NCBI RefSeq assembly: GCF_009931435.1
Contig: NZ_CP043414.1
Origin: Escherichia coli
GTDB lineage: Bacteria; Pseudomonadota; Gammaproteobacteria; Enterobacterales; Enterobacteriaceae
Reading direction: 5' to 3' (one strand)
DNA: 64,000 nucleotides
This document shows, piece after piece, positions 1,330 to 27,334 of this stretch. The notes beneath the pieces are model-generated. The model searched no databases. It saw only the letters and a program-made list of their open reading frames with translations, and was not told the DNA's origin. Each line of letters begins with the position of its first letter. The first letter of the stretch is position 1. The translations under genes and the position numbers were made by a program.

Positions 1330-5010
<3,681 letters not shown>

Positions 5011-7206: not shown

Positions 7207-7496
7207 ATCATAACGTCCGGTTTCTTCCGTGTCAGCACCGGGGTGTTGGCATAATACAATACATGTACGCGCTAAACCCTGTGTGCATCGTTTTTAATTA
7301 TTCCCGGACACTCCCGCAGAGAAGTTCCCCGTCAGGGCTGTGGACATAGTTAATCCGGGAATACAATGACGATTCATCGCACCTGGCATACATTAATAAA
7401 TATTAACAATATGAAATTTCAACTCATTGTTTAGGGTTTGTTTAATTTTCTACACATACGATTCTGCGAACTTCAAAAAGCATCGGGAATAACACC

Positions 7497-14762: not shown

Positions 14763-16289
14763 TTAGAAATAAATCTCACCATCAACCATATATTTGAGAG
14801 CACTTATCGCCTGCTGGGCGGATATTACTTTCATTAAAGGATAGTGTTTAAAAACAATGCCATTCATAAAATAGATATCACAGGTTTTATTATCCGTATT
14901 AATTATGATTTTTTCGAATGTTTTATAGGCAAGTGTACGGCATAACTCTCGTCCATTTTTACTGGTTAAGTCAATAGCATAAAAATCACTGAATGAATTT
15001 ACACCTTTACTCTTCAAAGTTTTCAATGATACCGAAGCCCTTCGTAATTCCTTATCTAATAGTCTTATTTTCTCTGCTATAGCGGTAACTTCAGGCGCGA
15101 CAGACAATGCAACGATTAAATTATTAATTTTCATCTGAAGCTCAATAATTTTTAACTCTAAAGTTTCATTAGCATCTTTCTTGTTTTCAACTGGTTGAAT
15201 TTTGCTACAATTAAAAAGCAATTCATTAATGATATTATAATCAACCAAATCTCTTTTTATTGATGGCCTGTCACATCGATGTAATCTTCTCATCGGACAA
15301 ACATAATAGCCATGCAAACTTCCAGATACCGCATGAACAATCATGGTATTACCACAAGCCTCACACTTCATAACTGTTCGAAGTAGATTTATTAGCATAG
15401 GATTCTTGCTACTATTGCTAATACCAAAAGGTGCCAACCGAATTTCCTGTACAGCGTAAAACAAATCATCTGATATGACTCTGGGATAATAGCCAGCGAT
15501 TTCACTTATCCCTTTCCCTCTTGCACGATATGAAGGTACGCAAATACCTATCAGAGCTTTATTCGCTAATAATTTTTCAATTACAGAAGGTCCCCATGCA
15601 CTTTCTTTTCCTGAGAAATTCTTTACAGCATGATCATTTAAATACTTGGCTATTGCATTCAATGAGCGCCTTTCCATCCTGAGTTTAAAAATTAGCTCAA
15701 TAGTTTTCACCCTGTCTGGGTCTGGAACAAAAGCCGTTCTTTTGTCATCTAAGGAGAGCCATCTCGGATAAGACGCCGTCATAATCGTACCTGATTCCAG
15801 TGCATCCTGCCGTTTTTTCTTCCATGATAATTTAACCCGACTTGACTTTATCTCGCTTTCTTCATTTGCCCTTTGTGCTATAAGTATGGCTTTTATTAAT
15901 GAATATGGCTCATTCAAAGAGTCAATATTATAGACTGTATTGTCGCAAAGAGTTATAACATCAATACCGTGATTCAAAATCAATTTCAGACGTTCAATCG
16001 CTTCACCGACTTTTTCTCTTGAAAGTCTGTCCAGACTTTCAACTAACAATGTAGTTCCTGGCAATATATAACCATGCTCTATAGCATCTAAAAATTCCGA
16101 AAAAGCTCCTGATTGTGCATGCTTTCCTTTGAATGCACTTAATCCTAAATCTTCATATGTTATGGTATCAAGATAATAATCACTATTTACCTTTAACCAT
16201 TCAGCAATAAGTCTTCTCTGTCGGTTTAATGAGTCGCCAGACATCTGACCTGGTGATGAAAATCGCATATATGCTATGGCTTTTTTCAT
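14763..16289 (-). CDS. ybcK: Large serine recombinase (resolvase/invertase N-terminal domain; YbcK-like)
   Basis: 508 aa; N-terminal catalytic serine motif (AIAYMRFSSPGQ); large C-terminal domain with Cys cluster. Confidence 0.85.
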   Translation of the reverse strand: MKKAIAYMRFSSPGQMSGDSLNRQRRLIAEWLKVNSDYYLDTITYEDLGLSAFKGKHAQSGAFSEFLDAIEHGYILPGTTLLVESLDRLSREKVGEAIERLKLILNHGIDVITLCDNTVYNIDSLNEPYSLIKAILIAQRANEESEIKSSRVKLSWKKKRQDALESGTIMTASYPRWLSLDDKRTAFVPDPDRVKTIELIFKLRMERRSLNAIAKYLNDHAVKNFSGKESAWGPSVIEKLLANKALIGICVPSYRARGKGISEIAGYYPRVISDDLFYAVQEIRLAPFGISNSSKNPMLINLLRTVMKCEACGNTMIVHAVSGSLHGYYVCPMRRLHRCDRPSIKRDLVDYNIINELLFNCSKIQPVENKKDANETLELKIIELQMKINNLIVALSVAPEVTAIAEKIRLLDKELRRASVSLKTLKSKGVNSFSDFYAIDLTSKNGRELCRTLAYKTFEKIIINTDNKTCDIYFMNGIVFKHYPLMKVISAQQAISALKYMVDGEIYF

Positions 16290-16543
16290 GGTGACACCTG
16301 CTAACGTATGCTTTTATAAACCTTAGTGGTGGGATATAATTTTTGTTTATTTTTTATTTAAAAAGACAATTAAGGTCACATTATCTTGAATATACAACAA
16401 TAATCGTATTGCAATTTTCTTACGCCATAATCTTGAAAGCACAAAAGAATACATAAAAAATAAAGACATTAACAAAAAGCATAAAACGAGGCTCATATAA
16501 ATATAAGAGCCTCCATATTTTAGTCGTTTAGAAACAAATTATT

Positions 16544-16876
16544 TTAATGTGGTGTGCTTCGTGACAATAAATTAATAATCAACACACCGGCACAAATCAA
16601 CATCATGCCTATAATGGCTGGCAGGTCCAGCCGTTGGCCGAAAAATCCCCATGACAGTAAGCTAATCAGGACAATACCGACTCCTGACCAGATAGCATAA
16701 GCAATCCCTGTAGGAATATAAGCCAGCGTCTGAGCTAATAACCAGAATGATGCACAATAACAAATAATTGTACCAACAGATGGCCATAACCGTGTAAAAC
16801 CTTCTGAAAACTTCATTAAGGTTGTACCAATGACCTCTGCAAGTATTGCACCACCAAGATAAATATAAGGGTTCAT
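16544..16876 (-). CDS. emrE: SMR-family multidrug efflux transporter EmrE
   Basis: 110 aa from MNPYIYLGGAILAEVIGTTLMKFSEGF, matches recalled EmrE. Confidence 0.95.
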   Translation of the reverse strand: MNPYIYLGGAILAEVIGTTLMKFSEGFTRLWPSVGTIICYCASFWLLAQTLAYIPTGIAYAIWSGVGIVLISLLSWGFFGQRLDLPAIIGMMLICAGVLIINLLSRSTPH

Positions 16877-16943
16877 AGCATATTCTTTCCTGTTCAAACT
16901 GGAGAGAATTGTACTACAGTTTGAACTCAACTCACCTGTTTCA

Positions 16944-17246
16944 TCATTGTGTTCCCATTGATGTTCTTTTATATACCCTCAATACCCGTTTCATCGCGGC
17001 ACTCTGGCGACACTCCTTAAAAATCAGATTCGTGCTCACCTTTCCTTCCCATTCTTCTCTGGTAGCGAACCGGTAATACACCGTTCGCCAGACCTTACCA
17101 TCAACGACCAGGATTCCTGCCCGCGCCATTTTAGCCGCAGCCTGATTTATGCTGGTTACGGTTGCGCCTGTTACCGCGGCAACGTCCTGTGCACAGAAGC
17201 TCTTATGCGTCCCCAGGTAATGAATAATTGCCTCTTTGCCCGTCAT
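16944..17246 (-). CDS. ren: Ren protein
   Basis: 100 aa, MTGKEAIIHYLGTH... matches lambda Ren. Confidence 0.85.
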   Translation of the reverse strand: MTGKEAIIHYLGTHKSFCAQDVAAVTGATVTSINQAAAKMARAGILVVDGKVWRTVYYRFATREEWEGKVSTNLIFKECRQSAAMKRVLRVYKRTSMGTQ

Positions 17247-17944
17247 ACACTTGCTCCTTTCAGTCCGAACTTAGCTTTAATTTCTGCGATCTTCGCCAGA
17301 GCCTGTGCACGATTTAGAGGTCTACCGCCCATAACAGGAAGTTGTTTTACTGGTTCAGGTATCGTCTCACCACGGTTAATTCGCGCTGTCATACAGGTCA
17401 GTTCATCGGCAGCCTTGCGCCGTAATTCCGCGTCAGCCAGCGCATTGGCCCGCATGTTCTGGTACAAGTTGGTAACCAACCAGTAATGCGCGTTCGATTT
17501 CCACGGATAAGACTCTGCATCCGGATACAGGCCACGCTTCCGGCAATACTCGTAAACCATATCAACCAGCTCGCTGACGTTTGGCAGCCCGGCGTTAACA
17601 GATGCTTCTTCCCGGCACCAGGCGACAAACTGCCCGGGTGATGGCAGGAATGGTCGATTCTGCCGACGGGCTACGCGCATTCCAGCGTTAACCTGTTCCA
17701 TTGTGGTGATCCCGTTTTCCCGGAAAGCCAGAACCCACTGGCGGCGGATTTCGTTCAGTTCATTCTGGTCACGGTTAGCCAGGCTAGCCGGGAAAGTTGC
17801 CAGTAACTGGCTGAACACACCGTTGATGATCTGCGCTACCTGCTGTACCTGCGGCTTTTCGTCGTACTGTTCCGGCATATTGTTGGCGATCCGGCGCATC
17901 TGCTCACGGTCAAAGTTAACCATCTGTGCGGCGATGTTTTTCAT
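17243..17944 (-). CDS. P: Replication protein P (DnaB helicase loader)
   Basis: 233 aa, lambda P-like. Confidence 0.9.
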   Translation of the reverse strand: MKNIAAQMVNFDREQMRRIANNMPEQYDEKPQVQQVAQIINGVFSQLLATFPASLANRDQNELNEIRRQWVLAFRENGITTMEQVNAGMRVARRQNRPFLPSPGQFVAWCREEASVNAGLPNVSELVDMVYEYCRKRGLYPDAESYPWKSNAHYWLVTNLYQNMRANALADAELRRKAADELTCMTARINRGETIPEPVKQLPVMGGRPLNRAQALAKIAEIKAKFGLKGASV

Positions 17945-18870
17945 AAATCCACCCCGTAAATCCAGTCAGTGTTCGTCAGGTCGAGTTTTGGTTTGCCGGC
18001 TGTCACGCCAGCCTGTTGCTTGTTTCGGTTGATTTCGAGCTGGGTCCACTTGTCGCGGAGTTTGGCCGGACTCAGCACGTTACCGGACCAGAAGTTGTCC
18101 TGGCATGCCCAGCGGAACAGCACGCACATGTCGCGGTGGTTACGTCCGTCACGTTCACGCATCAGGCGGATATCGTTAGCCCACCCTGCAAAATTCGGTT
18201 TTCTGGCTGATGGCGCGATGGTCTTCACCATGTCAAACATCCACTCTGCGGCGGTCAGGTCTTCTGCTGTCCCCCACTTGCTGCCACTCTGAATTGCAGC
18301 ATCCGGTTTCACCACAGGAAGGTCGTTTTCTGGCTGGTCAGAGGATTCGCCAGAATTCTCGGACGAAAAAGGTTTTATATTGTCTTTTGTTAGTTTGTCT
18401 TTTGTGTTTACCTGATTCGGGTAAACGCCTTTACCTGATTTGGGTAAACTTTTCTTACCTGATTCAGGTAAATTTACCTCTTTCAGGTAAACTTTATTTT
18501 TCTTACCTGATTCGGGTAATGTTGACCATTCACTGACCACATTATTAATGCCGATATTTCGCCCGCTCTGAATAAGAATCCCACGCTTTACCAGAACGCT
18601 TTTTGCAGCAGAACACTTGTGCGGCAATATCCCGGTCAATTCGGAAAGTTGCTCGTTGCTCACCCAATCCAGTCTTTTATTAAAGCCATATGTTTTGCGC
18701 ATGACAGCCAGGAAGACCAGAAGCTGGTGCTGTGTTAATCCGGCCAGCATCACAGCTTCCAGCAACTCATTTGCAATGCGCGTATAACCATCATCGAGAT
18801 CTGCCACGCGCGGCTCCTTTTGTGCCGCATCCGGCACTGGAAAATTGAATATCTCAGCAGTGTTTGCCAT
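17941..18870 (-). CDS. O: Replication initiator O (contains ori iterons)
   Basis: Lambda O-like N-terminus; start MANTAEIFNF preceded by GGGAGG SD (track ORF starts earlier at 18960); iterons inside the gene. Confidence 0.85.
   Translation of the reverse strand: MANTAEIFNFPVPDAAQKEPRVADLDDGYTRIANELLEAVMLAGLTQHQLLVFLAVMRKTYGFNKRLDWVSNEQLSELTGILPHKCSAAKSVLVKRGILIQSGRNIGINNVVSEWSTLPESGKKNKVYLKEVNLPESGKKSLPKSGKGVYPNQVNTKDKLTKDNIKPFSSENSGESSDQPENDLPVVKPDAAIQSGSKWGTAEDLTAAEWMFDMVKTIAPSARKPNFAGWANDIRLMRERDGRNHRDMCVLFRWACQDNFWSGNVLSPAKLRDKWTQLEINRNKQQAGVTAGKPKLDLTNTDWIYGVDL
18372..18520. repeat. Origin of replication: five 18-bp iterons (ttacctgattcgggtaaa and variants) plus adjacent AT-rich tract, inside O
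   Basis: Iterons at about 18408-18425, 18431-18448, 18455-18472, 18474-18491, 18503-18520; AT-rich 18372-18406. Confidence 0.85.
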
Positions 18871-18956
18871 AATTCCTCCCGCAATGAGTGTGTTACGATT
18901 TGCACCTGAAAGTCGGTTCTGTTCCCGCAGACCGACTTTCGCCATTTCTGAACCTA

Positions 18957-19496
18957 TCATATTGCCCCCAGCATGGTGGTCACCATCGCCATTAATGGAC
19001 CAGCCAGATCCGGGTCCACACGAAACATCGACACAATACCTTCACTCATTTCCTTCAGTTTCTGGTGGCGTGGTGCGTTGAGAATGACAGCCTGTTTTGC
19101 CTCACTGAGTTCCTTTTCCATTTCAGCCAACCGAGTCATGAAGCTATCCTGCTCAACCAGGTAACCGCGATATTCCAGCGGTAGTACCGCCAGAATTGCC
19201 GGGGTCAGTTCACGCACGTTATTTCGGTATTTTTCAGAATCGAATTTGTTATCGAGGAAGCGGAACAGCTTCTGGCGTGCACGGCTGACATCATCAGGGA
19301 AATCGATGGTGCCGTCGCCCTGCTCCCGATACTCATTCACAATGAGTGCGGCAACGACATCCTGATTATCTACAGCCGACCAGGCGCGGACGGCATCACG
19401 GATTTTTTCGTGGCCTGGAGCTTGTTTTGTTTGAGAACGATTTATCACCGCAGTCGGAATAAATCCGCTAGTCTGTTGGTATGTAAGTGGTTGCAT
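18957..19496 (-). CDS. Early regulatory protein in the cII position (YdaT-like)
   Basis: 179 aa ORF between the cro-like gene and O. Confidence 0.6.
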   Translation of the reverse strand: MQPLTYQQTSGFIPTAVINRSQTKQAPGHEKIRDAVRAWSAVDNQDVVAALIVNEYREQGDGTIDFPDDVSRARQKLFRFLDNKFDSEKYRNNVRELTPAILAVLPLEYRGYLVEQDSFMTRLAEMEKELSEAKQAVILNAPRHQKLKEMSEGIVSMFRVDPDLAGPLMAMVTTMLGAI

Positions 19497-19565
19497 AATT
19501 GACTCCTTTAGTTTGAATTGACTGTTAAGTTGATTGCTTATTGTTAAAGAGCGTGAAATGGAAAT

Positions 19566-19796
19566 TTAAGCTGCGTTCTTTTCGGTGTGTGGAAACAACT
19601 TCGGAAGATCCGGGCGAATCTGGTATGCCTTCACAACTCCACCAGTAGCCGTAACAATGCTGCCGACATGTTCAGGGGATACCTTTGCTTTGTTGTGAAG
19701 CCACTTATAGACGGCCTGCTGTGAAACTTCGCAGGCATCGCCTAGTTTCTTTTGTGAACCAACGATATTGATCGCTGTTTTGATTGCTGGGTTCAT
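19566..19796 (-). CDS. cro: Cro-like HTH regulator (YdaS/Cro family)
   Basis: 76 aa, divergent from the cI gene across the operator region. Confidence 0.7.
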   Translation of the reverse strand: MNPAIKTAINIVGSQKKLGDACEVSQQAVYKWLHNKAKVSPEHVGSIVTATGGVVKAYQIRPDLPKLFPHTEKNAA

Positions 19797-19900
19797 AACA
19801 ACCTCCGTGGTTAATCCGAATCAAGATTAAAACTATGGTTGTTTTTAGTCAACAACCATTTTCGTTTGATGAAATAAAACCTTGGTTGTACATTTGATCT
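19797..19900. promoter_or_regulatory. Immunity-region divergent promoter/operator (OR-like); 9-bp-arm palindrome atggttgtt-N7-aacaaccat at 19835-19859
   Basis: Palindrome and repeated ACAACC/GGTTGT half-sites between divergent cro-like and cI genes. Confidence 0.6.
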
Positions 19901-20590
19901 ATGAAAACAACACTCTCAGAAAGACTTAAAGAAGCCAGATTAGCGCGAGGCCTTACACAAAAGGCGCTTGGGGATTTGGTCGGGGTTAGCCAGGCTGCTA
20001 TTCAGAAAATCGAAACAGGGAAAGCTAACCAAACAACTAAAATCGTGGAGATCGCGAACGCTTTGGGTGTACGCGCAGAATGGTTATCTTCTGGCGTTGG
20101 AAATATGTCAGACAGTACAGTGCAACCAATACAATCAACTGTCAGCCATTCCAAATACTTCAAAATTGACGTTCTTGATATAGAAGTCAGTGCCGGGCCA
20201 GGTGTAATCAACCGTGAGTTTGTAGAAGTTCTACGCTCGGTTGAGTACTCGTTTGACGATGCTCGTCACATGTTCGATGGCAGGAAGGCGGAAAATATCC
20301 GCATCATTAACGTGCGAGGTGACAGCATGTCAGGGACGATCGAACCAGGTGACCTGCTGTTCGTTGATATCACTGTTAAATCTTTCGACGGTGATGGCAT
20401 CTATGCGTTTCTGTACGACGACACTGCCCATGTAAAACGTCTTCAAATGATGAAGGATAAGCTGCTGGTTATCTCTGATAACAAGAGCTACTCGCCGTGG
20501 GACCCGATCGAGAAAGACGAGATGAACCGGGTGTTCATATTCGGTAAGGTCATTGGAAGCATGCCGCAGACGTACAGGAAGCATGGTTAA
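19901..20590 (+). CDS. cI: CI-type prophage repressor (XRE HTH plus S24 LexA-like autopeptidase domain)
   Basis: 229 aa; N-terminal HTH; C-terminal GDSMSGTIEPGDLLFVD peptidase motif. Confidence 0.85.
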   Translation: MKTTLSERLKEARLARGLTQKALGDLVGVSQAAIQKIETGKANQTTKIVEIANALGVRAEWLSSGVGNMSDSTVQPIQSTVSHSKYFKIDVLDIEVSAGPGVINREFVEVLRSVEYSFDDARHMFDGRKAENIRIINVRGDSMSGTIEPGDLLFVDITVKSFDGDGIYAFLYDDTAHVKRLQMMKDKLLVISDNKSYSPWDPIEKDEMNRVFIFGKVIGSMPQTYRKHG

Positions 20591-20819
20591 TTTATCTACG
20601 ACTTAAGGGAGCGAAGGTTAAGGTTTATACCACTCGGATTAGATATTGCACTAAATTCTCTATAAGAACGCCAAATCTGTTTGCATATTTCAGTAAATAT
20701 TCTCGTTGTTAGCTGAGATTTGTTGCTACTGTCAGCAAAATGTCTCCCTATCTCGTAGCGGTTTTTATTTCGAATCATTATGTTAAGATGTTTCTGATTA
20801 TAATGAATGGAAACATAAA

Positions 20820-21200
20820 ATGAGAAAAATCCTAATCGCTGCCATGATGGCATCTGTATTGGCTGGGTGTGCTTCTTCAGGCAACCAGCAACTCAAAAAT
20901 GAAACTGAAATTAGTGTCCAGTCTAAACTTCAGGAAGGTAAAACAACCAAGAATGAGGTTAAATCTTACTTTGGTTCTCCTGATGCTGTTTCATATACTG
21001 ACAGTGGAAAGGAGATCTGGAAGTACGCCTTTGCAAAAGTAAAAGTTAATGGCACCACTTTTATTCCATTCTATGGATTATTCCATAACGGAACGAACGG
21101 TACGAAAAAAGAACTTACTATTCTTTTTAACGATGACACGATTAAGAAATACACAATGTCAGAAACCCAAATAAACTCGAAATCAGGTTGGGCTGACTGA
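20820..21200 (+). CDS. Lipoprotein of unknown function encoded downstream of cI (rexAB position)
   Basis: 126 aa; signal peptide with lipobox LAGC; followed by a terminator. Confidence 0.75.
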   Translation: MRKILIAAMMASVLAGCASSGNQQLKNETEISVQSKLQEGKTTKNEVKSYFGSPDAVSYTDSGKEIWKYAFAKVKVNGTTFIPFYGLFHNGTNGTKKELTILFNDDTIKKYTMSETQINSKSGWAD

Positions 21201-21207
21201 TAATCAT

Positions 21208-21236
21208 ACCCGGCAACCGCGCCGGGTTTTCTTTTC
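21208..21236 (+). terminator. Rho-independent terminator after the cI-lipoprotein unit
   Basis: acccggc / gccgggt stem followed by tttcttttcc. Confidence 0.7.
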
Positions 21237-21350
21237 CTCCCCCTCATAACTCATACCGTCCAAAAAACCACCACACCTCACTTCAGTTATCGCTATGCGA
21301 TGCAAGTCACAAAATAAATCCATCCTAAATACAACCAGTTATATTTAAAA

Positions 21351-21404
21351 CAACCGATAAAACAACTTTTGTTGTTGACGATAAAACAACTATAGTTTTA
21401 AATA
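21351..21404 (+). promoter_or_regulatory. Candidate early-left promoter/operator (pL/OL-like): palindrome aacaac-tttt-gttgtt overlapping a TTGACG -35 element
   Basis: Palindrome 21361-21376; TTGACG at 21375-21380; AT-rich -10 candidates about 17 bp downstream; shares the ACAAC half-site with the OR region. Confidence 0.45.
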
Positions 21405-21596
21405 AATTCATCGCAACGACACAACGATACGGTAACCACCTGTTTCACCGTTGCGATGACCGCTTAGATCCGCAGTTTGAATTTCAGCAGGCTTCGGGGA
21501 GTGCGAGGGGTGAAACGGACGCGTGAACGTCGGTGTGACCAGCTGAAATCAACACAACACTTTATACCTCAGTCGCTTCAACGAGGCGGCTTAGTT

Positions 21597-21887
21597 ATGA
21601 CAACCGGCGGCCATCCACCGCCTGAATACGCGCAGAAGTCTCTATATGTTCAGCAGCCCAGCTTACGGGCAGGAGTTTTTATGGTTCATCAACATTACGG
21701 AACGCAGACCGTTAATCGAGGTGCGGTCATGCCAGGAATGCTGGTCAAACACAAAGATGGTACCTGGACTGCATCAGCTAATTTACGCGGACGGCTTTAT
21801 CTGCATCGCGGCATCGAGCGCACTTATACCCGTGATTTGCTCGTGGAAGTTTTTCTCGACGGACGCGGTAACGGCCTGAATCGCTAA
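21597..21887 (+). CDS. Hypothetical early-left protein (96 aa from ATG with GAGG SD; possible 136-aa form from TTG at 21477)
   Basis: ORF between the pL-like region and gam; the longer form has an arginine-rich N-terminus. Confidence 0.4.
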
Positions 21888-21962
21888 TCCCCTTTCCTGT
21901 TTTCCTAATCAGCCTGGCATTTCGCGGGCGATATTTTCACAGCCATTTTCAGGAGTTCAGCC

Positions 21963-22259
21963 ATGAACGCTTATTACATTCAGGATCGTCTTGAGGCTCA
22001 GAGCTGGGCGCGTTACTACCAGCAGATCGCCCGTGAAGAGAAAGAGGCAGAACTGGCAGACGACATGGAAAAAGGCCTGCCCCAGCACCTGTTTGAATCG
22101 CTATGCATCGATCATTTGCAACGCCACGGGGCCAGCAAAAAAGCCATTACCCGTGCGTTTGATGACGATGTTGAGTTTCAGGAGCGCATGGCAGAACACA
22201 TCCGGTACATGGTTGAAACCATTGCTCACCACCAGGTTGATATTGATTCAGAGGTATAA
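21963..22259 (+). CDS. gam: Gam (RecBCD inhibitor), short GamS-length form
   Basis: 98 aa matches the C-terminal 98 residues of lambda Gam; AGGAG SD; in-frame stop upstream at 21906. Confidence 0.9.
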
Positions 22260-22264
22260 AACGG

Positions 22265-23050
22265 ATGAGTACAGCACTCGCAACGCTGGCAGGGAAGCTG
22301 GCTGAACGTGTCGGCATGGATTCTGTCGACCCACAGGAACTGATCACCACTCTTCGCCAGACGGCATTTAAAGGTGATGCCAGCGATGCGCAGTTCATCG
22401 CATTGCTGATCGTCGCCAACCAGTACGGCCTTAATCCGTGGACGAAAGAAATTTACGCCTTCCCTGATAAGCAGAACGGCATCGTTCCGGTGGTGGGCGT
22501 TGATGGCTGGTCCCGCATCATCAATGAAAACCAGCAGTTTGATGGCATGGACTTTGAGCAGGACAACGAATCCTGTACATGCCGGATTTACCGCAAGGAC
22601 CGTAATCATCCGATCTGCGTTACCGAATGGATGGATGAATGCCGCCGCGAACCATTCAAAACCCGCGAAGGCAGAGAAATCACGGGGCCGTGGCAGTCGC
22701 ATCCCAAACGGATGTTACGGCATAAAGCCATGATTCAGTGTGCCCGTCTGGCCTTCGGATTTGCTGGTATCTATGACAAGGATGAAGCCGAGCGCATTGT
22801 CGAAAATACTGCATACACTGCAGAACGTCAGCCAGAACGCGACATCACTCCGGTTAACGATGAAACCATGCAGGAGATTAACACTCTGCTGATCGCCCTG
22901 GATAAAACATGGGATGACGACTTATTGCCGCTCTGTTCCCAGATATTTCGCCGCGACATTCGCGCATCGTCAGAACTGACACAGGCCGAAGCAGTGAAAG
23001 CTCTTGGATTCCTGAAACAGAAAGCCACTGAGCAGAAGGTGGCAGCATGA
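22265..23050 (+). CDS. bet: Bet (Red-beta single-strand annealing protein)
   Basis: 261 aa, matches lambda Bet. Confidence 0.95.
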
Positions 23051-23727
23051 TACCGGACATTATCCTGCAGCGTACCGGGATCGACGTGAGAGCTGTCGAA
23101 CAGGGGGATGATGCATGGCACAAATTACGGCTCGGCGTCATCACCGCTTCAGAAGTTCACAACGTGATAGCAAAGCCCCGCTCAGGAAAGAAGTGGCCTG
23201 ACATGAAAATGTCCTACTTCCACACCCTGCTGGCTGAGGTTTGCACCGGTGTGGCTCCGGAAGTTAATGCTAAGGCGCTGGCCTGGGGAAAACAGTACGA
23301 GAACGACGCCAGAACCCTGTTTGAATTCACTTCCGGCGTGAATATTACTGAATCCCCGATCATCTATCGCGACGAAAGTATGCGCACCGCCTGCTCTCCC
23401 GATGGTTTATGCAGTGACGGCAACGGCCTTGAACTGAAATGCCCGTTTACCTCCCGGGATTTCATGAAATTCCGGCTCGGTGGTTTCGAGGCAATAAAAT
23501 CGGCTTACATGGCCCAGGTGCAGTACAGCATGTGGGTGACGCGAAAAGATGCCTGGTACTTTGCCAACTATGACCCGCGCATGAAGCGTGAAGGCCTGCA
23601 TTATGTCGTGATTGAGCGGAATGAAAAGTACATGGCGAGTTTTGACGAGATGGTGCCGGAGTTCATCGAAAAAATGGACGAGGCACTGGCTGAAATTGGT
23701 TTTGTATTTGGGGAGCAATGGCGATGA
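23047..23727 (+). CDS. exo: Exo (lambda exonuclease)
   Basis: 226 aa, near-identical to lambda Exo; full length. Confidence 0.95.
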
Positions 23728-23906
23728 CGCATCCTCACGATAATATCCGGGTAGGCGCGATCACTTTCGTCTACTCCGTTACAAAGCGAGGCTGGGTATT
23801 TCCCGGCCTTTCTGTTATCAGAAATCCACTGAAAGCACAGCGGCTGGCTGAGAAGATAAATAATAAACGGGAGGCGGTATGCACAAAGCATCTCCTGTTG
23901 AGTTAA
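23718..23906 (+). CDS. Lambda orf60a-like small protein
   Basis: 62 aa, matches recalled lambda orf60a. Confidence 0.6.
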
Positions 23907-24070
23907 GAACGAGTATTGAGATGGCACATAGCCTTGCTCAAATTGGAGTCAGGTTTGTGCCAATACCAGTAGAAACAGACGAAGAATTTCATACGTTAGC
24001 CACATCCCTTTCACAAAAGCTGGAAATGATGGTGGCGAAAGCAGAAGCAGATGAGAGAGACCAGGTATGA
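23879..24070 (+). CDS. Lambda orf63-like small protein
   Basis: 63 aa, matches recalled lambda orf63. Confidence 0.6.
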   Translation: MHKASPVELRTSIEMAHSLAQIGVRFVPIPVETDEEFHTLATSLSQKLEMMVAKAEADERDQV

Positions 24071-24150
24071 CAACCACTGAATGCATTTTTCTGGCAGCGG
24101 GCTTCATATTCTGTGTGCTTATGCTTGCCGACATGGGGCTTGTTCAATGA
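24067..24150 (+). CDS. Candidate 27-aa hydrophobic peptide (MTTTECIFLAAGFIFCVLMLADMGLVQ), translationally coupled to neighbours
   Basis: ATGA overlaps at both ends (24067 and 24147); not in the ORF track. Confidence 0.35.
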   Translation: MTTTECIFLAAGFIFCVLMLADMGLVQ

Positions 24151-24362
24151 CACCTCAGCAAGAAAACGCCCTTCGCAGCATTGCCCGTCAGGCTAATTCT
24201 GAAATCAAAAAAGCCAGACAGCATTTTCCGGATAAAAACGTCGATGACATTTGCCGTAGCGTACTAAAGAAGCACCGCGAAACGGTAACGCTGATGGGAT
24301 TCACACCGACTCATTTAAGCCTGGCGATCGGCATGTTGAACGGCGTCTTTAAGGAACGGTGA
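24147..24362 (+). CDS. Hypothetical small prophage protein
   Basis: 72 aa from MTPQQENALRSIARQ; the track ORF starts earlier at 24081. Confidence 0.5.
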   Translation: MTPQQENALRSIARQANSEIKKARQHFPDKNVDDICRSVLKKHRETVTLMGFTPTHLSLAIGMLNGVFKER

Positions 24363-24460
24363 ACATGAAAAGCAAAATCATCAGGGAGCTACAGGCTCCT
24401 TTTTTATTATTCGCATTTACCCTCAAGCGTATTAACCAACAATTCAGGGATTAATGAAAG

Positions 24461-24679
24461 ATGGCAGACATCATTGATTCAGCATCAGAAATCGAAGAAT
24501 TACAGCGCAATACAGCAATAAAAATGCGTCGTCTGAACTACCAGACTGTATCCGCAACTCATTGTTGTGAGTGTGGCGATCCGATAGATGAGCGAAGACG
24601 CCTGGCTGTTCAGGGTTGTCGGACTTGTGCGAGTTGCCAGGAGGAGATCGAACTTAAGAACAAACAATGGGGACTGTGA
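24461..24679 (+). CDS. TraR/DksA-family C4 zinc-finger protein
   Basis: 72 aa with CxxC-N17-CxxC (CCECGDP ... CRTCASC). Confidence 0.7.
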   Translation: MADIIDSASEIEELQRNTAIKMRRLNYQTVSATHCCECGDPIDERRRLAVQGCRTCASCQEEIELKNKQWGL

Positions 24680-24726
24680 TGGCCTCAAAGCAGCAAATTT
24701 CAACATCGTCCAACTGAGGTGTAAAA

Positions 24727-25005
24727 ATGTTCAGAATCATTTTTCCTAACACCTGGTACGTCGACCACCACGGCACTCCCTGCAAAATCCTGCGTTCTAC
24801 CCACAACAAAGTTCACTACATCCGAAAAGGCAGAACATGTATCGCCAGCATGTTCCGCTTTAATCATGACTTTGAACCTGTGAATAAAGCTGATGCAGAT
24901 CGGATAGCAGAAGAGATCGAAACGGCAGAACACATTAAGAAGTTACGTGACATGCGTTCAAAAAGCAGAGGTAACCATGGAATCATACAGCCTCACACTC
25001 GATGA
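24727..25005 (+). CDS. Hypothetical prophage protein
   Basis: 92 aa ORF upstream of xis. Confidence 0.4.
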   Translation: MFRIIFPNTWYVDHHGTPCKILRSTHNKVHYIRKGRTCIASMFRFNHDFEPVNKADADRIAEEIETAEHIKKLRDMRSKSRGNHGIIQPHTR

Positions 25006-25348
25006 GGCCTGTCAGTTTCTTAAGATATCCAGACCAACCGCCACCAACTGGATACGAACAGGCCGCCTACAGGCAACACGTAAAGATCCAACCAAGCCAA
25101 AATCTCCTTACCTCACAACACGGCAAGCCTGCATTGCGGCGCTTCAGTCTCCGCTGCATACTGTCCAGGTGAGCGCGGGTGATGGCATAACAGAGGAAAG
25201 AAAATGTCACTCTTCCGCAGAAATGAAATATGGTATGCCTCGTATTCGCTCCCGGGCGGGAAACGAATTAAGGAATCTCTTGGCACAAAGGACAAGCGGC
25301 AAGCTCAGGAGTTGCACGACAAGCGAAAAGCAGAACTCTGGCGAGTAG
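24977..25348 (+). CDS. xis: Putative excisionase; 3' end uncertain, ORF overlaps the int start
   Basis: ORF directly upstream of int with HTH-like N-terminus ([26 protein letters not shown]); possibly a pseudogene as in K-12 xisD. Confidence 0.45.
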
Positions 25349-26367
25349 AAAAGCTAGGGGATTTACCTGATGTCACTTTTGAAGAGGCCTGCCTAAGATG
25401 GCTTGAGGAAAAAGCTGATAAAAAATCTCTCGATTCAGATAAAAGCCGGATTGAGTTCTGGCTTGAACATTTTGAGGGTATAAGGCTTAAAGATATCTCG
25501 GAGGCAAAGATTTACTCTGCTGTAAGCAGAATGCATAACAGAAAGACGAAAGAAATATGGAAACAGAAAGTTCAGGCCGCCATCAGGAAAGGTAAAGAAC
25601 TGCCTGTTTATGAACCAAAGCCAGTATCAACTCAGACAAAGGCAAAGCATCTTGCCATGATAAAGGCCATTCTCCGTGCTGCAGAACGCGACTGGAAGTG
25701 GCTGGAAAAAGCGCCTGTCATCAAGATACCAGCGGTCAGAAACAAGCGAGTCAGATGGCTGGAAAAGGAGGAAGCAAAACGCCTTATTGATGAGTGCCCC
25801 GAACCACTGAAATCTGTCGTCAAGTTTGCGCTGGCAACTGGTCTGAGAAAGTCGAACATCATAAATCTGGAATGGCAACAAATCGACATGCAGCGACGAG
25901 TTGCCTGGGTGAATCCAGAAGAGAGCAAATCAAACCGCGCCATTGGTGTGGCGCTGAACGATACCGCCTGTAAAGTGTTGCGTGATCAAATAGGCAAGCA
26001 TCACAAATGGGTGTTTGTACATACCAAGGCGGCTAAGCGAGCAGATGGAACATCAACGCCTGCGGTCAGGAAGATGCGCATCGACAGCAAGACATCATGG
26101 CTATCAGCTTGTCGTCGTGCAGGAATTGAAGATTTCCGTTTCCATGACCTCAGACACACCTGGGCAAGCTGGCTGATTCAGTCAGGCGTCCCATTATCAG
26201 TGCTTCAGGAAATGGGCGGATGGGAGTCCATAGAAATGGTTCGTAGGTATGCTCACCTTGCGCCTAATCATTTGACAGAGCATGCGAGGAAAATAGACGA
26301 CATTTTTGGTGATAATGTCCCAAATATGTCCCACTCTGAAATTATGGAGGATATAAAGAAGGCGTAA
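25204..26367 (+). CDS. intD: Tyrosine integrase (DLP12 IntD-type)
   Basis: 387 aa; C-terminal R...HxxR...Y catalytic region; adjacent to tRNA-Arg. Confidence 0.95.
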
Positions 26368-26382
26368 CTGATTGAATTGTAA

Positions 26383-26459
26383 TGGCGCGCCCTGCAGGAT
26401 TCGAACCTGCGGCCCACGACTTAGAAGGTCGTTGCTCTATCCAACTGAGCTAAGGGCGC
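26383..26459 (-). tRNA. argU: tRNA-Arg (anticodon UCU), argU; phage attachment site at its 3' end
   Basis: 77-nt reverse complement gives acceptor stem GCGCCCU/AGGGCGC, anticodon loop CUUCUAA, T-arm GGTTCGAATCC, 3' CCA. Confidence 0.95.
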
Positions 26460-26701
26460 GTTGATACCGCAATGCGGTGTAATCGCGTGAATTATACGGT
26501 CAACCCTTGCTGAGTCAATGGCTTTTGATCTGGTTGCTGAACAAGTGAACGACCGCGTCTGATTTTCTGATTTATTTCGCTATAGCGGCAAACAAACGTA
26601 CACCGCTGCGCGTCTGAATCAAGAAAACCCGTATTTTCATGTATCAAAGTACAATTTCCCGCCCTAACGGAAAATTGTCCGATCCTATGAGACTGATAAC
26701 T

Positions 26702-27334
26702 ATGAAACCAACGTCGGTGATCATTATGGATACTCATCCTATCATCAGAATGTCTATTGAAGTTCTGTTGCAAAAAAACAGTGAATTGCAGATTGTCCTG
26801 AAAACGGATGATTACCGCATAACCATCGACTATCTCCGAACCCGTCCTGTTGATTTAATCATTATGGATATAGACTTGCCCGGTACAGACGGTTTTACCT
26901 TCCTGAAAAGGATCAAACAAATCCAGAGTACAGTGAAAGTATTATTTTTATCATCGAAATCAGAATGCTTTTATGCTGGCAGAGCGATACAAGCTGGTGC
27001 TAACGGTTTTGTCAGTAAATGCAATGATCAGAATGATATTTTTCATGCCGTTCAGATGATTCTCTCTGGATACACTTTTTTTCCCAGCGAAACGCTCAAC
27101 TATATAAAAAGCAATAAATGCAGTACGAATAGTTCAACGGTCACTGTGCTATCTAATCGTGAAGTGACCATATTACGTTATCTGGTTAGTGGATTATCTA
27201 ATAAAGAAATTGCCGATAAGTTATTACTTAGCAATAAAACAGTTAGTGCGCATAAATCTAATATTTATGGCAAGCTAGGTTTGCATTCAATTGTAGAGCT
27301 TATCGACTACGCCAAATTATATGAATTAATATAA
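26702..27334 (+). CDS. fimZ: LuxR-family response regulator FimZ
   Basis: 210 aa from MKPTSVIIMDTHPII; receiver domain plus C-terminal LuxR HTH. Confidence 0.9.
   Translation: MKPTSVIIMDTHPIIRMSIEVLLQKNSELQIVLKTDDYRITIDYLRTRPVDLIIMDIDLPGTDGFTFLKRIKQIQSTVKVLFLSSKSECFYAGRAIQAGANGFVSKCNDQNDIFHAVQMILSGYTFFPSETLNYIKSNKCSTNSSTVTVLSNREVTILRYLVSGLSNKEIADKLLLSNKTVSAHKSNIYGKLGLHSIVELIDYAKLYELI

Follow-up and report, generated by a model that had tools for sequence, protein, structure and literature searches.

The early-left operon of a DLP12-like prophage of Escherichia coli: a lambdoid pL region with a 270-nucleotide kil leader, a conserved two-hairpin RNA and no recognisable N or put

The stretch of Escherichia coli DNA analysed here (64,000 nucleotides of contig NZ_CP043414.1, hereafter the window) carries a lambdoid prophage in which the + strand corresponds to the leftward direction of lambda. 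Between the terminator of the cI-lipoprotein transcript and gam, this prophage has the left operators (OL) and promoter (pL), an untranslated leader of about 270 nt from the transcription start to the first gene, and kil. No N gene was found, and the leader matched neither nut nor put; we consider it probable, though by no means certain, that the kil-gam-bet-exo genes of this N-less DLP12-like prophage are transcribed without a phage antiterminator. The leader is a three-part composite, with a stem-loop at the 5′ end, a lineage-specific middle, and a cassette made of a conserved two-hairpin RNA element and a small hairpin by the Shine-Dalgarno sequence (SD) of kil. An earlier note, made from the letters of this DNA, had described the region as a compact lambdoid early-left operon lacking N and cIII, and that description holds; the distance from terminator to gam, which it gave as about 750 bp, was computed as 735 bp (from 21208-21227 to the gam ATG at 21963). 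The features of the region are as follows.

21208-21227, + strand: intrinsic terminator of the cI-lipoprotein (moron) transcript, upstream of OL/pL; a 7-pair stem (6 G-C) followed by TTTCTTTT
21348-21390: OL operators; three AAACAAC half-sites (21348, 21360 and 21384) and a palindrome at 21361-21376
21375-21403, + strand: pL promoter; -35 TTGACG (21375-21380), 17-nt spacer, -10 TTAAAT (21398-21403)
21408-21459, + strand: 5′-terminal stem-loop of the pL transcript; stem of 9-11 bp, loop of 30 nt
21460-21556, + strand: middle leader, confined to Bievrevirus/DLP12-type prophages; diversity (pi) 0.031
21557-21626, + strand: conserved two-hairpin RNA element of 63-70 nt; 85 bits with covariance model R1, single copy in the window
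21656-21675, + strand: small hairpin GCCC-AGCUUAC-GGGC directly before the kil SD AGGAG, read from the sequence
21681-21887, + strand: kil, 68 aa (207 nt), family of FtsZ/cell-division inhibitors; SD AGGAG at 21671-21675
21963-22259, + strand: gam, the early-left gene after kil (phrog_259, E = 6.9e-60), followed by bet and exo

The pL promoter and OL operators

The palindrome AACAAC-TTTT-GTTGTT, with arms at 21361-21366 and 21371-21376 and a 4-nt spacer, overlaps the TTGACG hexamer of pL. The half-site AAACAAC recurs at the right operators (OR) and pR near 19838, inside a palindrome with 9-nt arms (19835-19843 and 19851-19859), and six of the 17 copies of AAACAAC in the 64-kb window lie in or beside these two control regions. 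A palindromic operator over the -35 element, with half-sites in common with OR, had been seen in the earlier reading of the sequence and was confirmed. The region has what is expected of a lambdoid OL/pL, namely a sigma-70 promoter under repeated half-sites common to OR, with a weak -10 element.

A consensus promoter scan did not list pL, as its -10 hexamer TTAAAT has no A at position 2, and the assignment of pL therefore rests on its position and on alignment with the promoter TTGATA-17-TATTAT of relatives. In that alignment TTAAAT falls column for column on the TATTAT of the 4A7-type promoter. When two immunity groups are aligned, their operator blocks are unrelated, and identity of about 97% begins at the predicted transcription start near A21410 and continues downstream; a third promoter/operator type, found in strain CT29 and at another locus, breaks at the same point. 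The operator block has been swapped as a unit, with unrelated operators in relatives of other immunity types, and transcription probably starts near A21410.

The kil gene

The earlier note had found no recognisable kil; this was mistaken, since the only open reading frame (ORF) before gam encodes Kil (phrog_294, NF008465). The profile searches that it had proposed with the ORF proteins gave the Kil family for both the 96-aa and the 68-aa forms: PHROG 294 ("Kil protein for bacterial septation inhibition") was matched at E = 1.6e-38 by the 96-aa form and at E = 1.7e-37 by residues 1-67 of the 68-aa form. NCBIfam NF008465 ("FtsZ inhibitor protein") was matched at E = 3.6e-17, residues 1-65 aligning to positions 1-67 of the 73-position profile. 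At 62 bits the match falls short of the curated 92-bit cut-off of this Rac KilR model, and the protein is therefore a relative, not an equivalog, of Rac KilR.

Position 1 of the NF008465 profile aligns to residue 1 of the 68-aa protein, and the tblastn homologues, in HK225 (85% identity), SEN34, Klebsiella phages, phi80 (40%) and HK639 (38%), likewise align from that residue. The same 207-nt kil gene is annotated in phage 4A7 and in RefSeq genomes. From these comparisons the ORF is kil, with its start at ATG 21681 behind the AGGAG SD and not at 21597, where the earlier note had begun a 96-aa ORF; a division-blocking activity is predicted from the family.

Three longer forms of the ORF, of 136 aa (from TTG 21477), 125 aa (from GTG 21510) and 96 aa (from 21597), were rejected as kil starts because their frames are broken in relatives. 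The CAG codon at 21570 is TAG in four of 10 related phages (PhiR5_1, PhiR34_1, PhiR70_1 and PhiR68_2). PhiR30_1 has an extra T just before the kil ATG, a +1 frameshift; in strain LR-50 the frame from 21597 stops after ten codons; several contigs lack 2 nt of the interval from 21597 to the kil ATG; and in phage D2 a mosaic junction falls exactly at the kil ATG. Substitutions in the TTG frame, read by hand, are mostly non-synonymous (R>W, G>E, V>M, S>L and others). The arginine-rich extension from the TTG had been compared in the earlier note with N proteins and noted to have no SD. The second point stands; no family match was found for residues 1-40, and since the longer forms break in relatives, the arginine-rich stretch is not part of a conserved protein.

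At the D2 locus (about 1940-1990) the sequence after the kil ATG switches to the interior of an apparent lambda-cIII-like ORF (MRKLRDGWK...). The junction shows 2-3 nt of microhomology, in a record that has N runs and is of uncertain quality.

The 5′ stem-loop and the middle of the leader

The arms of the 5′-terminal stem, 21408-21418 and 21449-21459, are 11 nt long, 100% complementary and 30 nt apart. The perfect stem and the 30-nt loop are as first described, the stem being 11 nt and not 10, and the hairpin does lie at the extreme 5′ end of the pL transcript, where HK022 has putL. Its folding energy is -18.5 kcal/mol (z = -4.8), and none of 200 shuffled sequences folded as well. The stem is kept in full in strain LR-50 (9/9 pairs, with a loop 8 nt longer) and almost so in CT29 (8/9, with the loop wholly replaced). 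No two-sided compensatory change was seen among the stems compared, and PhiR26_1, the closest relative, has one internal mismatch.

The first 20-25 or so transcribed bases of pL (CATCG-AACGA-ACA-CGA; 21410-21434) are alike in the window and in the examined loci of phi80 (about 2762-2781), HK639 (about 4876-4885, - strand) and HK225 (about 1244-1263). These similar transcript starts occur despite differing operators and otherwise unrelated leaders; homology of the middle leader to the leaders of phi80, HK639, HK225 or Klebsiella phages was considered and rejected, as only the first 25 nt or so align.

The fold of 21411-21556 is unremarkable (z = +0.2), and the TTG and GTG reading frames of the middle leader are broken in relatives. 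Diversity (pi) is 0.03-0.04 in the leader, 0.030 in the kil-gam spacer and 0.054-0.071 at third codon positions; the leader thus resembles the spacer, at about half the third-position diversity, which suggests constraint that is modest at most. A Rho-utilisation signature was sought and was not diagnostic, the C-over-G skew being only -0.2 to -0.27.

The 5′ part of the leader is specific to Bievrevirus/DLP12-type prophages, and the leader is present in 2209 of 5426 complete E. coli genomes (about 41%). It is found also in phages for which a laboratory strain of E. coli is recorded as host. As the leader is both common in genomes and present in phages with recorded E. coli hosts, the N-less layout is probably functional.

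A conserved two-hairpin RNA element ahead of kil

The last part of the leader contains a two-hairpin RNA element. Hairpin 1 spans 21563-21599, with the AUG at 21597 in its base, and is followed by the spacer ACAACC and by hairpin 2 (21606-21622, GGCGG-CCAUCCA-CCGCC). Covariation was assessed in 41 distinct element sequences, from which model R1 was built. Seven of the 15 pairs of hairpin 1 vary on both sides, one position showing as many as six pair types. Of the cells in the 41 sequences, 97% are paired, a share that drops to 30-51% in controls with slid partners. Hairpin 1 keeps conserved U-G pairs that would be A-C on the opposite strand; in other loci R1 gives 67-97 bits for the sense strand and 14-30 bits for the antisense strand. 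Hardly any variation is seen in hairpin 2 and the spacer; the third base of hairpin 2 differs from C in only four IMG/VR contigs, three of which keep a G-U pair.

No Rfam family matched the element, and it is unannotated in the RefSeq E. coli genomes that carry it; a full-text literature search found no paper containing its sequence. It is apparently an undescribed conserved RNA. The stretch of 16S rRNA complementary to hairpin 2 is part of helix 45, and for this reason pairing of hairpin 2 with the 3′ region of 16S rRNA was considered by eye and dropped.

An exact 18-mer from the element occurs in at least 120 IMG/VR contigs, and the element in 2320 of 5426 complete E. coli genomes as well as in phi80, HK639, HK225 and CobraSix. 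In phi80 the element (77 bits) lies directly after N and the annotated terminator tL1A and ahead of kil; in HK639 about 1.2 kb separate it from pL and putL upstream, and hairpin 2 is annotated there as a terminator; in HK225 it is preceded by a terminator and followed by kil. Outside the Bievrevirus type, a T run is found immediately before the element in nearly all contexts. Its flanks vary, with more than 30 upstream ORF ends and more than 30 downstream ORF starts. A kil homologue follows on the same strand, 85-1212 nt downstream, in 103 of 129 loci, and precedes the element in none of 132. The element occurs with N (phi80), with put (HK639) and with neither, and is therefore not a substitute for N or put.

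Some variants, including that of HK639 (3605-3633 of the examined locus), have a U run after hairpin 2, which is seen neither in the window nor in most variants. One viral contig has a second, diverged copy of the element (51 bits, 7250-7313, - strand) in which hairpin 2 is shortened to CGG-CUAUCCAA-CCG; all other examined loci have a single copy. At the position of the small hairpin before the kil SD, other cassette variants, compared by eye, have different stems, CGCG...CGCG and GCC...GGC.

Searches for N, nut and put

Each ORF in the interval between pL and int was assigned to a PHROG other than those of N and cIII. In tblastn searches with N of lambda, phi21 and phi80 and with cIII, nothing was found below E = 0.5. 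The annotated genomes of 4A7 and PhiR26_1 list only an antiterminator of the Q type. In the leader (21400-21700) there is no boxA within 3 mismatches, and the predicted folds include no boxB-like hairpin with a 5-bp stem and a GNRA-like pentaloop. The sole zero-mismatch match to boxA in the window follows cro:

19541-19553, - strand: consensus boxA (CGCTCTTTAACAA), 12 nt after the cro stop, in the nutR position

This boxA has no boxB-like hairpin after it, and relatives with 4A7-type immunity lack the boxA.

The putL of HK022 is an RNA of about 70 nt with two stems that begins at the 5′ end of the pL transcript (PMC9378689). A covariance model (R2) was built from aligned HK022 putL and putR, taken from the HK022 genome, and HK639 putL, taken from a GenBank record in which it is annotated; with the model, its three training RNAs score 70-96 bits. 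Run over 15000-27000 with filters off, R2 found no match in the leader (21400-21700). Its best match, of 14 bits (rough E = 0.04), is at 18775-18841 (- strand), inside the O gene on the strand transcribed from pR; it is coding sequence without the put core and was judged a chance match. A second copy of the leader, as an analogue of putR, was not found either: blastn of the leader against the whole window returned only the leader itself, and neither R1 nor R2 finds a second site in the pR operon. An Rfam 15 cmscan of 19000-24000 at E <= 10 gave two chance matches elsewhere, to a Dictyostelium snoRNA and a Nitrosomonas sRNA. The prophage small RNAs Pas, AgvB and AsxR were rejected as candidates, on account of a late-region location or of Rfam families without a match in the scanned region.

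The proposal in the earlier note of an RNA-based or N-like antitermination mechanism has gained no positive evidence from these searches, the put model, boxA/boxB and pR-copy searches having all come back empty; the comparison that it suggested of the leader with the put RNAs of HK022 and with boxA/boxB of nut gave no match. That proposal is largely unsupported, and what emerged in its place is a real conserved RNA.

Comparison with known early-left systems

Compared with pL-nutL-N-tL1 of lambda, the region of the window has the same position, following cI, an accessory gene and the terminator of that gene. Both have multiple operators over a sigma-70 promoter with half-sites common to OR, and both share the operon run kil, gam, bet, exo, xis and int; from the kil stop onward the window is lambda-like (gam, bet, exo, orf60a, orf63, orf61). 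The window differs from lambda in having no N, no boxA/boxB in the leader and no cIII, in the 270 nt or so between the transcription start and the first gene, and in its kil, which is of the HK225/phi80/Rac family and not of the lambda type. KilR of Rac belongs to the same family and has the same early-left position by recombination genes, with 73 aa against 68 aa in the window.

Like the window, HK022 and HK639 have no N and have a structured RNA at the 5′ end of the pL transcript. The leader of the window, in contrast, lacks the put core (CGAACGGCNCG ... GUCGG ... GGCGGG-UCAGGA-GA ... CAAU) and has no second copy in the pR operon. HK639 has both put and the two-hairpin element, and the two are therefore separate things. 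Phi80 shares with the window the element, the conserved block downstream of it, the SD cassette and their order ahead of a kil homologue, and its first 20 nt or so are similar; the interval from pL to the element contains nutL, N and tL1A in phi80 and, in their place, about 150 nt of unrelated leader in the window.

The hairpin at the 5′ end of ompA mRNA is a stabilising 5′-terminal stem-loop, and the RNase III sites of the T7 early region are intercistronic processing hairpins. The likeness of the window to such hairpins is one of form and position only (a hairpin at the first nucleotides of the mRNA; a long imperfect intercistronic hairpin).

Interpretation and alternatives

On the explanation we favour, transcription from pL would continue directly through kil-gam-bet-exo, with neither a phage-encoded antiterminator nor a known antiterminator RNA, and no antitermination would be needed. 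By analogy with terminal hairpins of other bacterial mRNAs, the 5′-terminal stem-loop probably protects the 5′ end of the mRNA. The two-hairpin cassette and the hairpin adjacent to the SD would act in cis, with the mRNA and not RNA polymerase as target, and have a probable role in processing, stability or translation control of the toxic kil segment; these suggested functions are drawn from the form and position of the hairpins.

Four observations weigh against this explanation. The consensus boxA in the pR transcript hints at recruitment of Nus factors even without N. The missing match to put or nut leaves room for an unrelated antiterminator RNA. The middle leader and the 3′ arm of the 5′ hairpin are nearly invariant across three promoter types, which is compatible with an unrecognised function. 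Lastly, there is an intrinsic terminator inside the operon, and the genes beyond it, if expressed from pL, need some mechanism of read-through:

24383-24401, + strand: strong intrinsic terminator inside the pL operon; 8-bp stem and T run, after the orf61-like gene and ahead of the DksA-like gene, xis and int

A broader reading, possible yet clearly short of probable, is that the element is an undescribed class of cis-regulatory phage RNA which, maybe together with a mini-ORF (MTTGGHPPP), gates expression of kil and of the recombination genes that lie beyond the first early-left terminator in many enterobacterial lambdoid phages; the operon would then work either without an antiterminator or with an antiterminator RNA unrelated to put and hidden in the lineage-specific leader.

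The mini-ORF might also be the functional part itself. The element would then be a translated leader ORF (MTTGGHPPP...), in which polyproline stalling, or translation through the downstream block, controls kil and later genes by attenuation or translational coupling. AUG 21597 and the GAG(G) 10 nt upstream of it hardly vary, in contrast to the freely covarying middle of hairpin 1, the motif M-x-x-G-G-H-P-P-(P/T) is kept in 97 of 103 distinct contexts, and three insertion variants hold the frame and the same UAA end, about 35 nt before the next start codon. Nevertheless, indels of 1 or 2 nt destroy the peptide in six of the 103 contexts and in CobraSix and leave hairpin 2 intact, and the tail, length and frame of the peptide vary: it is fused to Kil in the window, has 10 aa in LR-50 and is out of frame elsewhere. 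Both the putative SD and the AUG are paired within hairpin 1, and the four IMG/VR contigs that differ in hairpin 2 do so at a synonymous third position, where three keep a G-U pair. We regard this explanation as unlikely.

A new cis-acting antiterminator RNA, put-like in function and unrelated to it in sequence, might instead replace N; it would be made of the 5′ hairpin, the middle leader or both. The phage has no N, a hairpin stands at the 5′ end of the transcript as putL does, the leader is conserved across three immunity types from the transcription start, and an intrinsic terminator precedes xis and int. The authors of a report on the N-less lambdoid phage LLS make the same guess of put-type antitermination (PMC12315714). 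Against it, R2 found nothing in the leader; the pR operon has no copy, whereas HK022 has both putL and putR; the stem shows no two-sided compensation and is mismatched in PhiR26_1; taken whole, the 5′ leader is no more stable in its fold than shuffled sequences; and its diversity equals that of the kil-gam spacer. An antiterminator RNA of this kind seems to us rather improbable.

Equally doubtful is the view that the conserved cassette is a DNA-level linker for homologous recombination of early-left cassettes, with no function as RNA. It would fit the differing genes on both sides from locus to locus, the mosaic junctions at the cassette edges and the near invariance of hairpin 2 and the spacer. 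A linker, however, needs identity and not pairing, while hairpin 1 changes its sequence yet stays paired and keeps its U-G pairs; the orientation of the cassette relative to kil is fixed, and R1 scores far higher on the sense strand.

There is hardly any chance that a divergent N-like protein with an arginine-rich motif, starting at TTG 21477 or GTG 21510, acts on the leader hairpin as N does on boxB: the frame does contain RLRGVRGVKRTRERR, and the PhiR26_1 record annotates a 125-aa "Kil" from the position equivalent to the GTG, but as a conserved protein it is already refuted in sequence comparisons by the TAG codons at 21570, the frameshift in PhiR30_1, the D2 junction, the mostly non-synonymous substitutions, and the absence of an SD and of a family match for its first 40 residues.

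Prophage setting

The region 19400-22300 is 99.6% identical to that of phage PhiR26_1; Perceval and 4A7, the type phage of the genus Bievrevirus, are also among the relatives. A literature search for a paper on the PhiR phage series found none. The genes upstream of pL are:

19901-20590: cI
20820-21200: lipoprotein moron

The slot between cI and pL (20600-21230) is a variable site for accessory genes, always upstream of the same pL leader. It is occupied by the lipoprotein gene in the window, and in relatives by genes for HipA/HipD, GevT/GevA, a SIR2-family protein, an ASCH-domain protein and others.

Downstream of gam-bet-exo are three lambda-like small ORFs, a DksA-like gene, xis and int. 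The int gene adjoins a tRNA-Arg(TCT) gene (26383-26459, - strand), which we take to be argU; beside this tRNA gene, within 26383-27334, there is a LuxR-type response regulator resembling fimZ. The gene order of the right arm is ybcN, ninE, ybcO, rusA, ylcG, Q, porin and lysis genes, in agreement with that of the cryptic prophage DLP12 of K-12, which by gene order appears to be a decayed relative. The prophage looks like an intact, Bievrevirus-type counterpart of DLP12 at argU.

Significance

In lambdoid phages, control of the early genes is by the textbook N/nut system, with put of HK022 as the known exception. The prophage type described here has no recognisable N, nutL or put, and its leader is present in about 41% of complete E. 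coli genomes. The N-less layout can be seen in published genomes and, as far as the literature was searched, has not been analysed. Two questions can be tested directly: by what means the operon gets past the terminator that precedes xis and int, and how expression of toxic kil is timed. The covarying, strand-specific RNA found in phi80, HK639, HK225 and many prophages is a new target for RNA biology in model phages. If the interpretation is true, the most common type of lambdoid prophage in E. coli would run its early-left operon without an antiterminator, or with an RNA unrelated to put.

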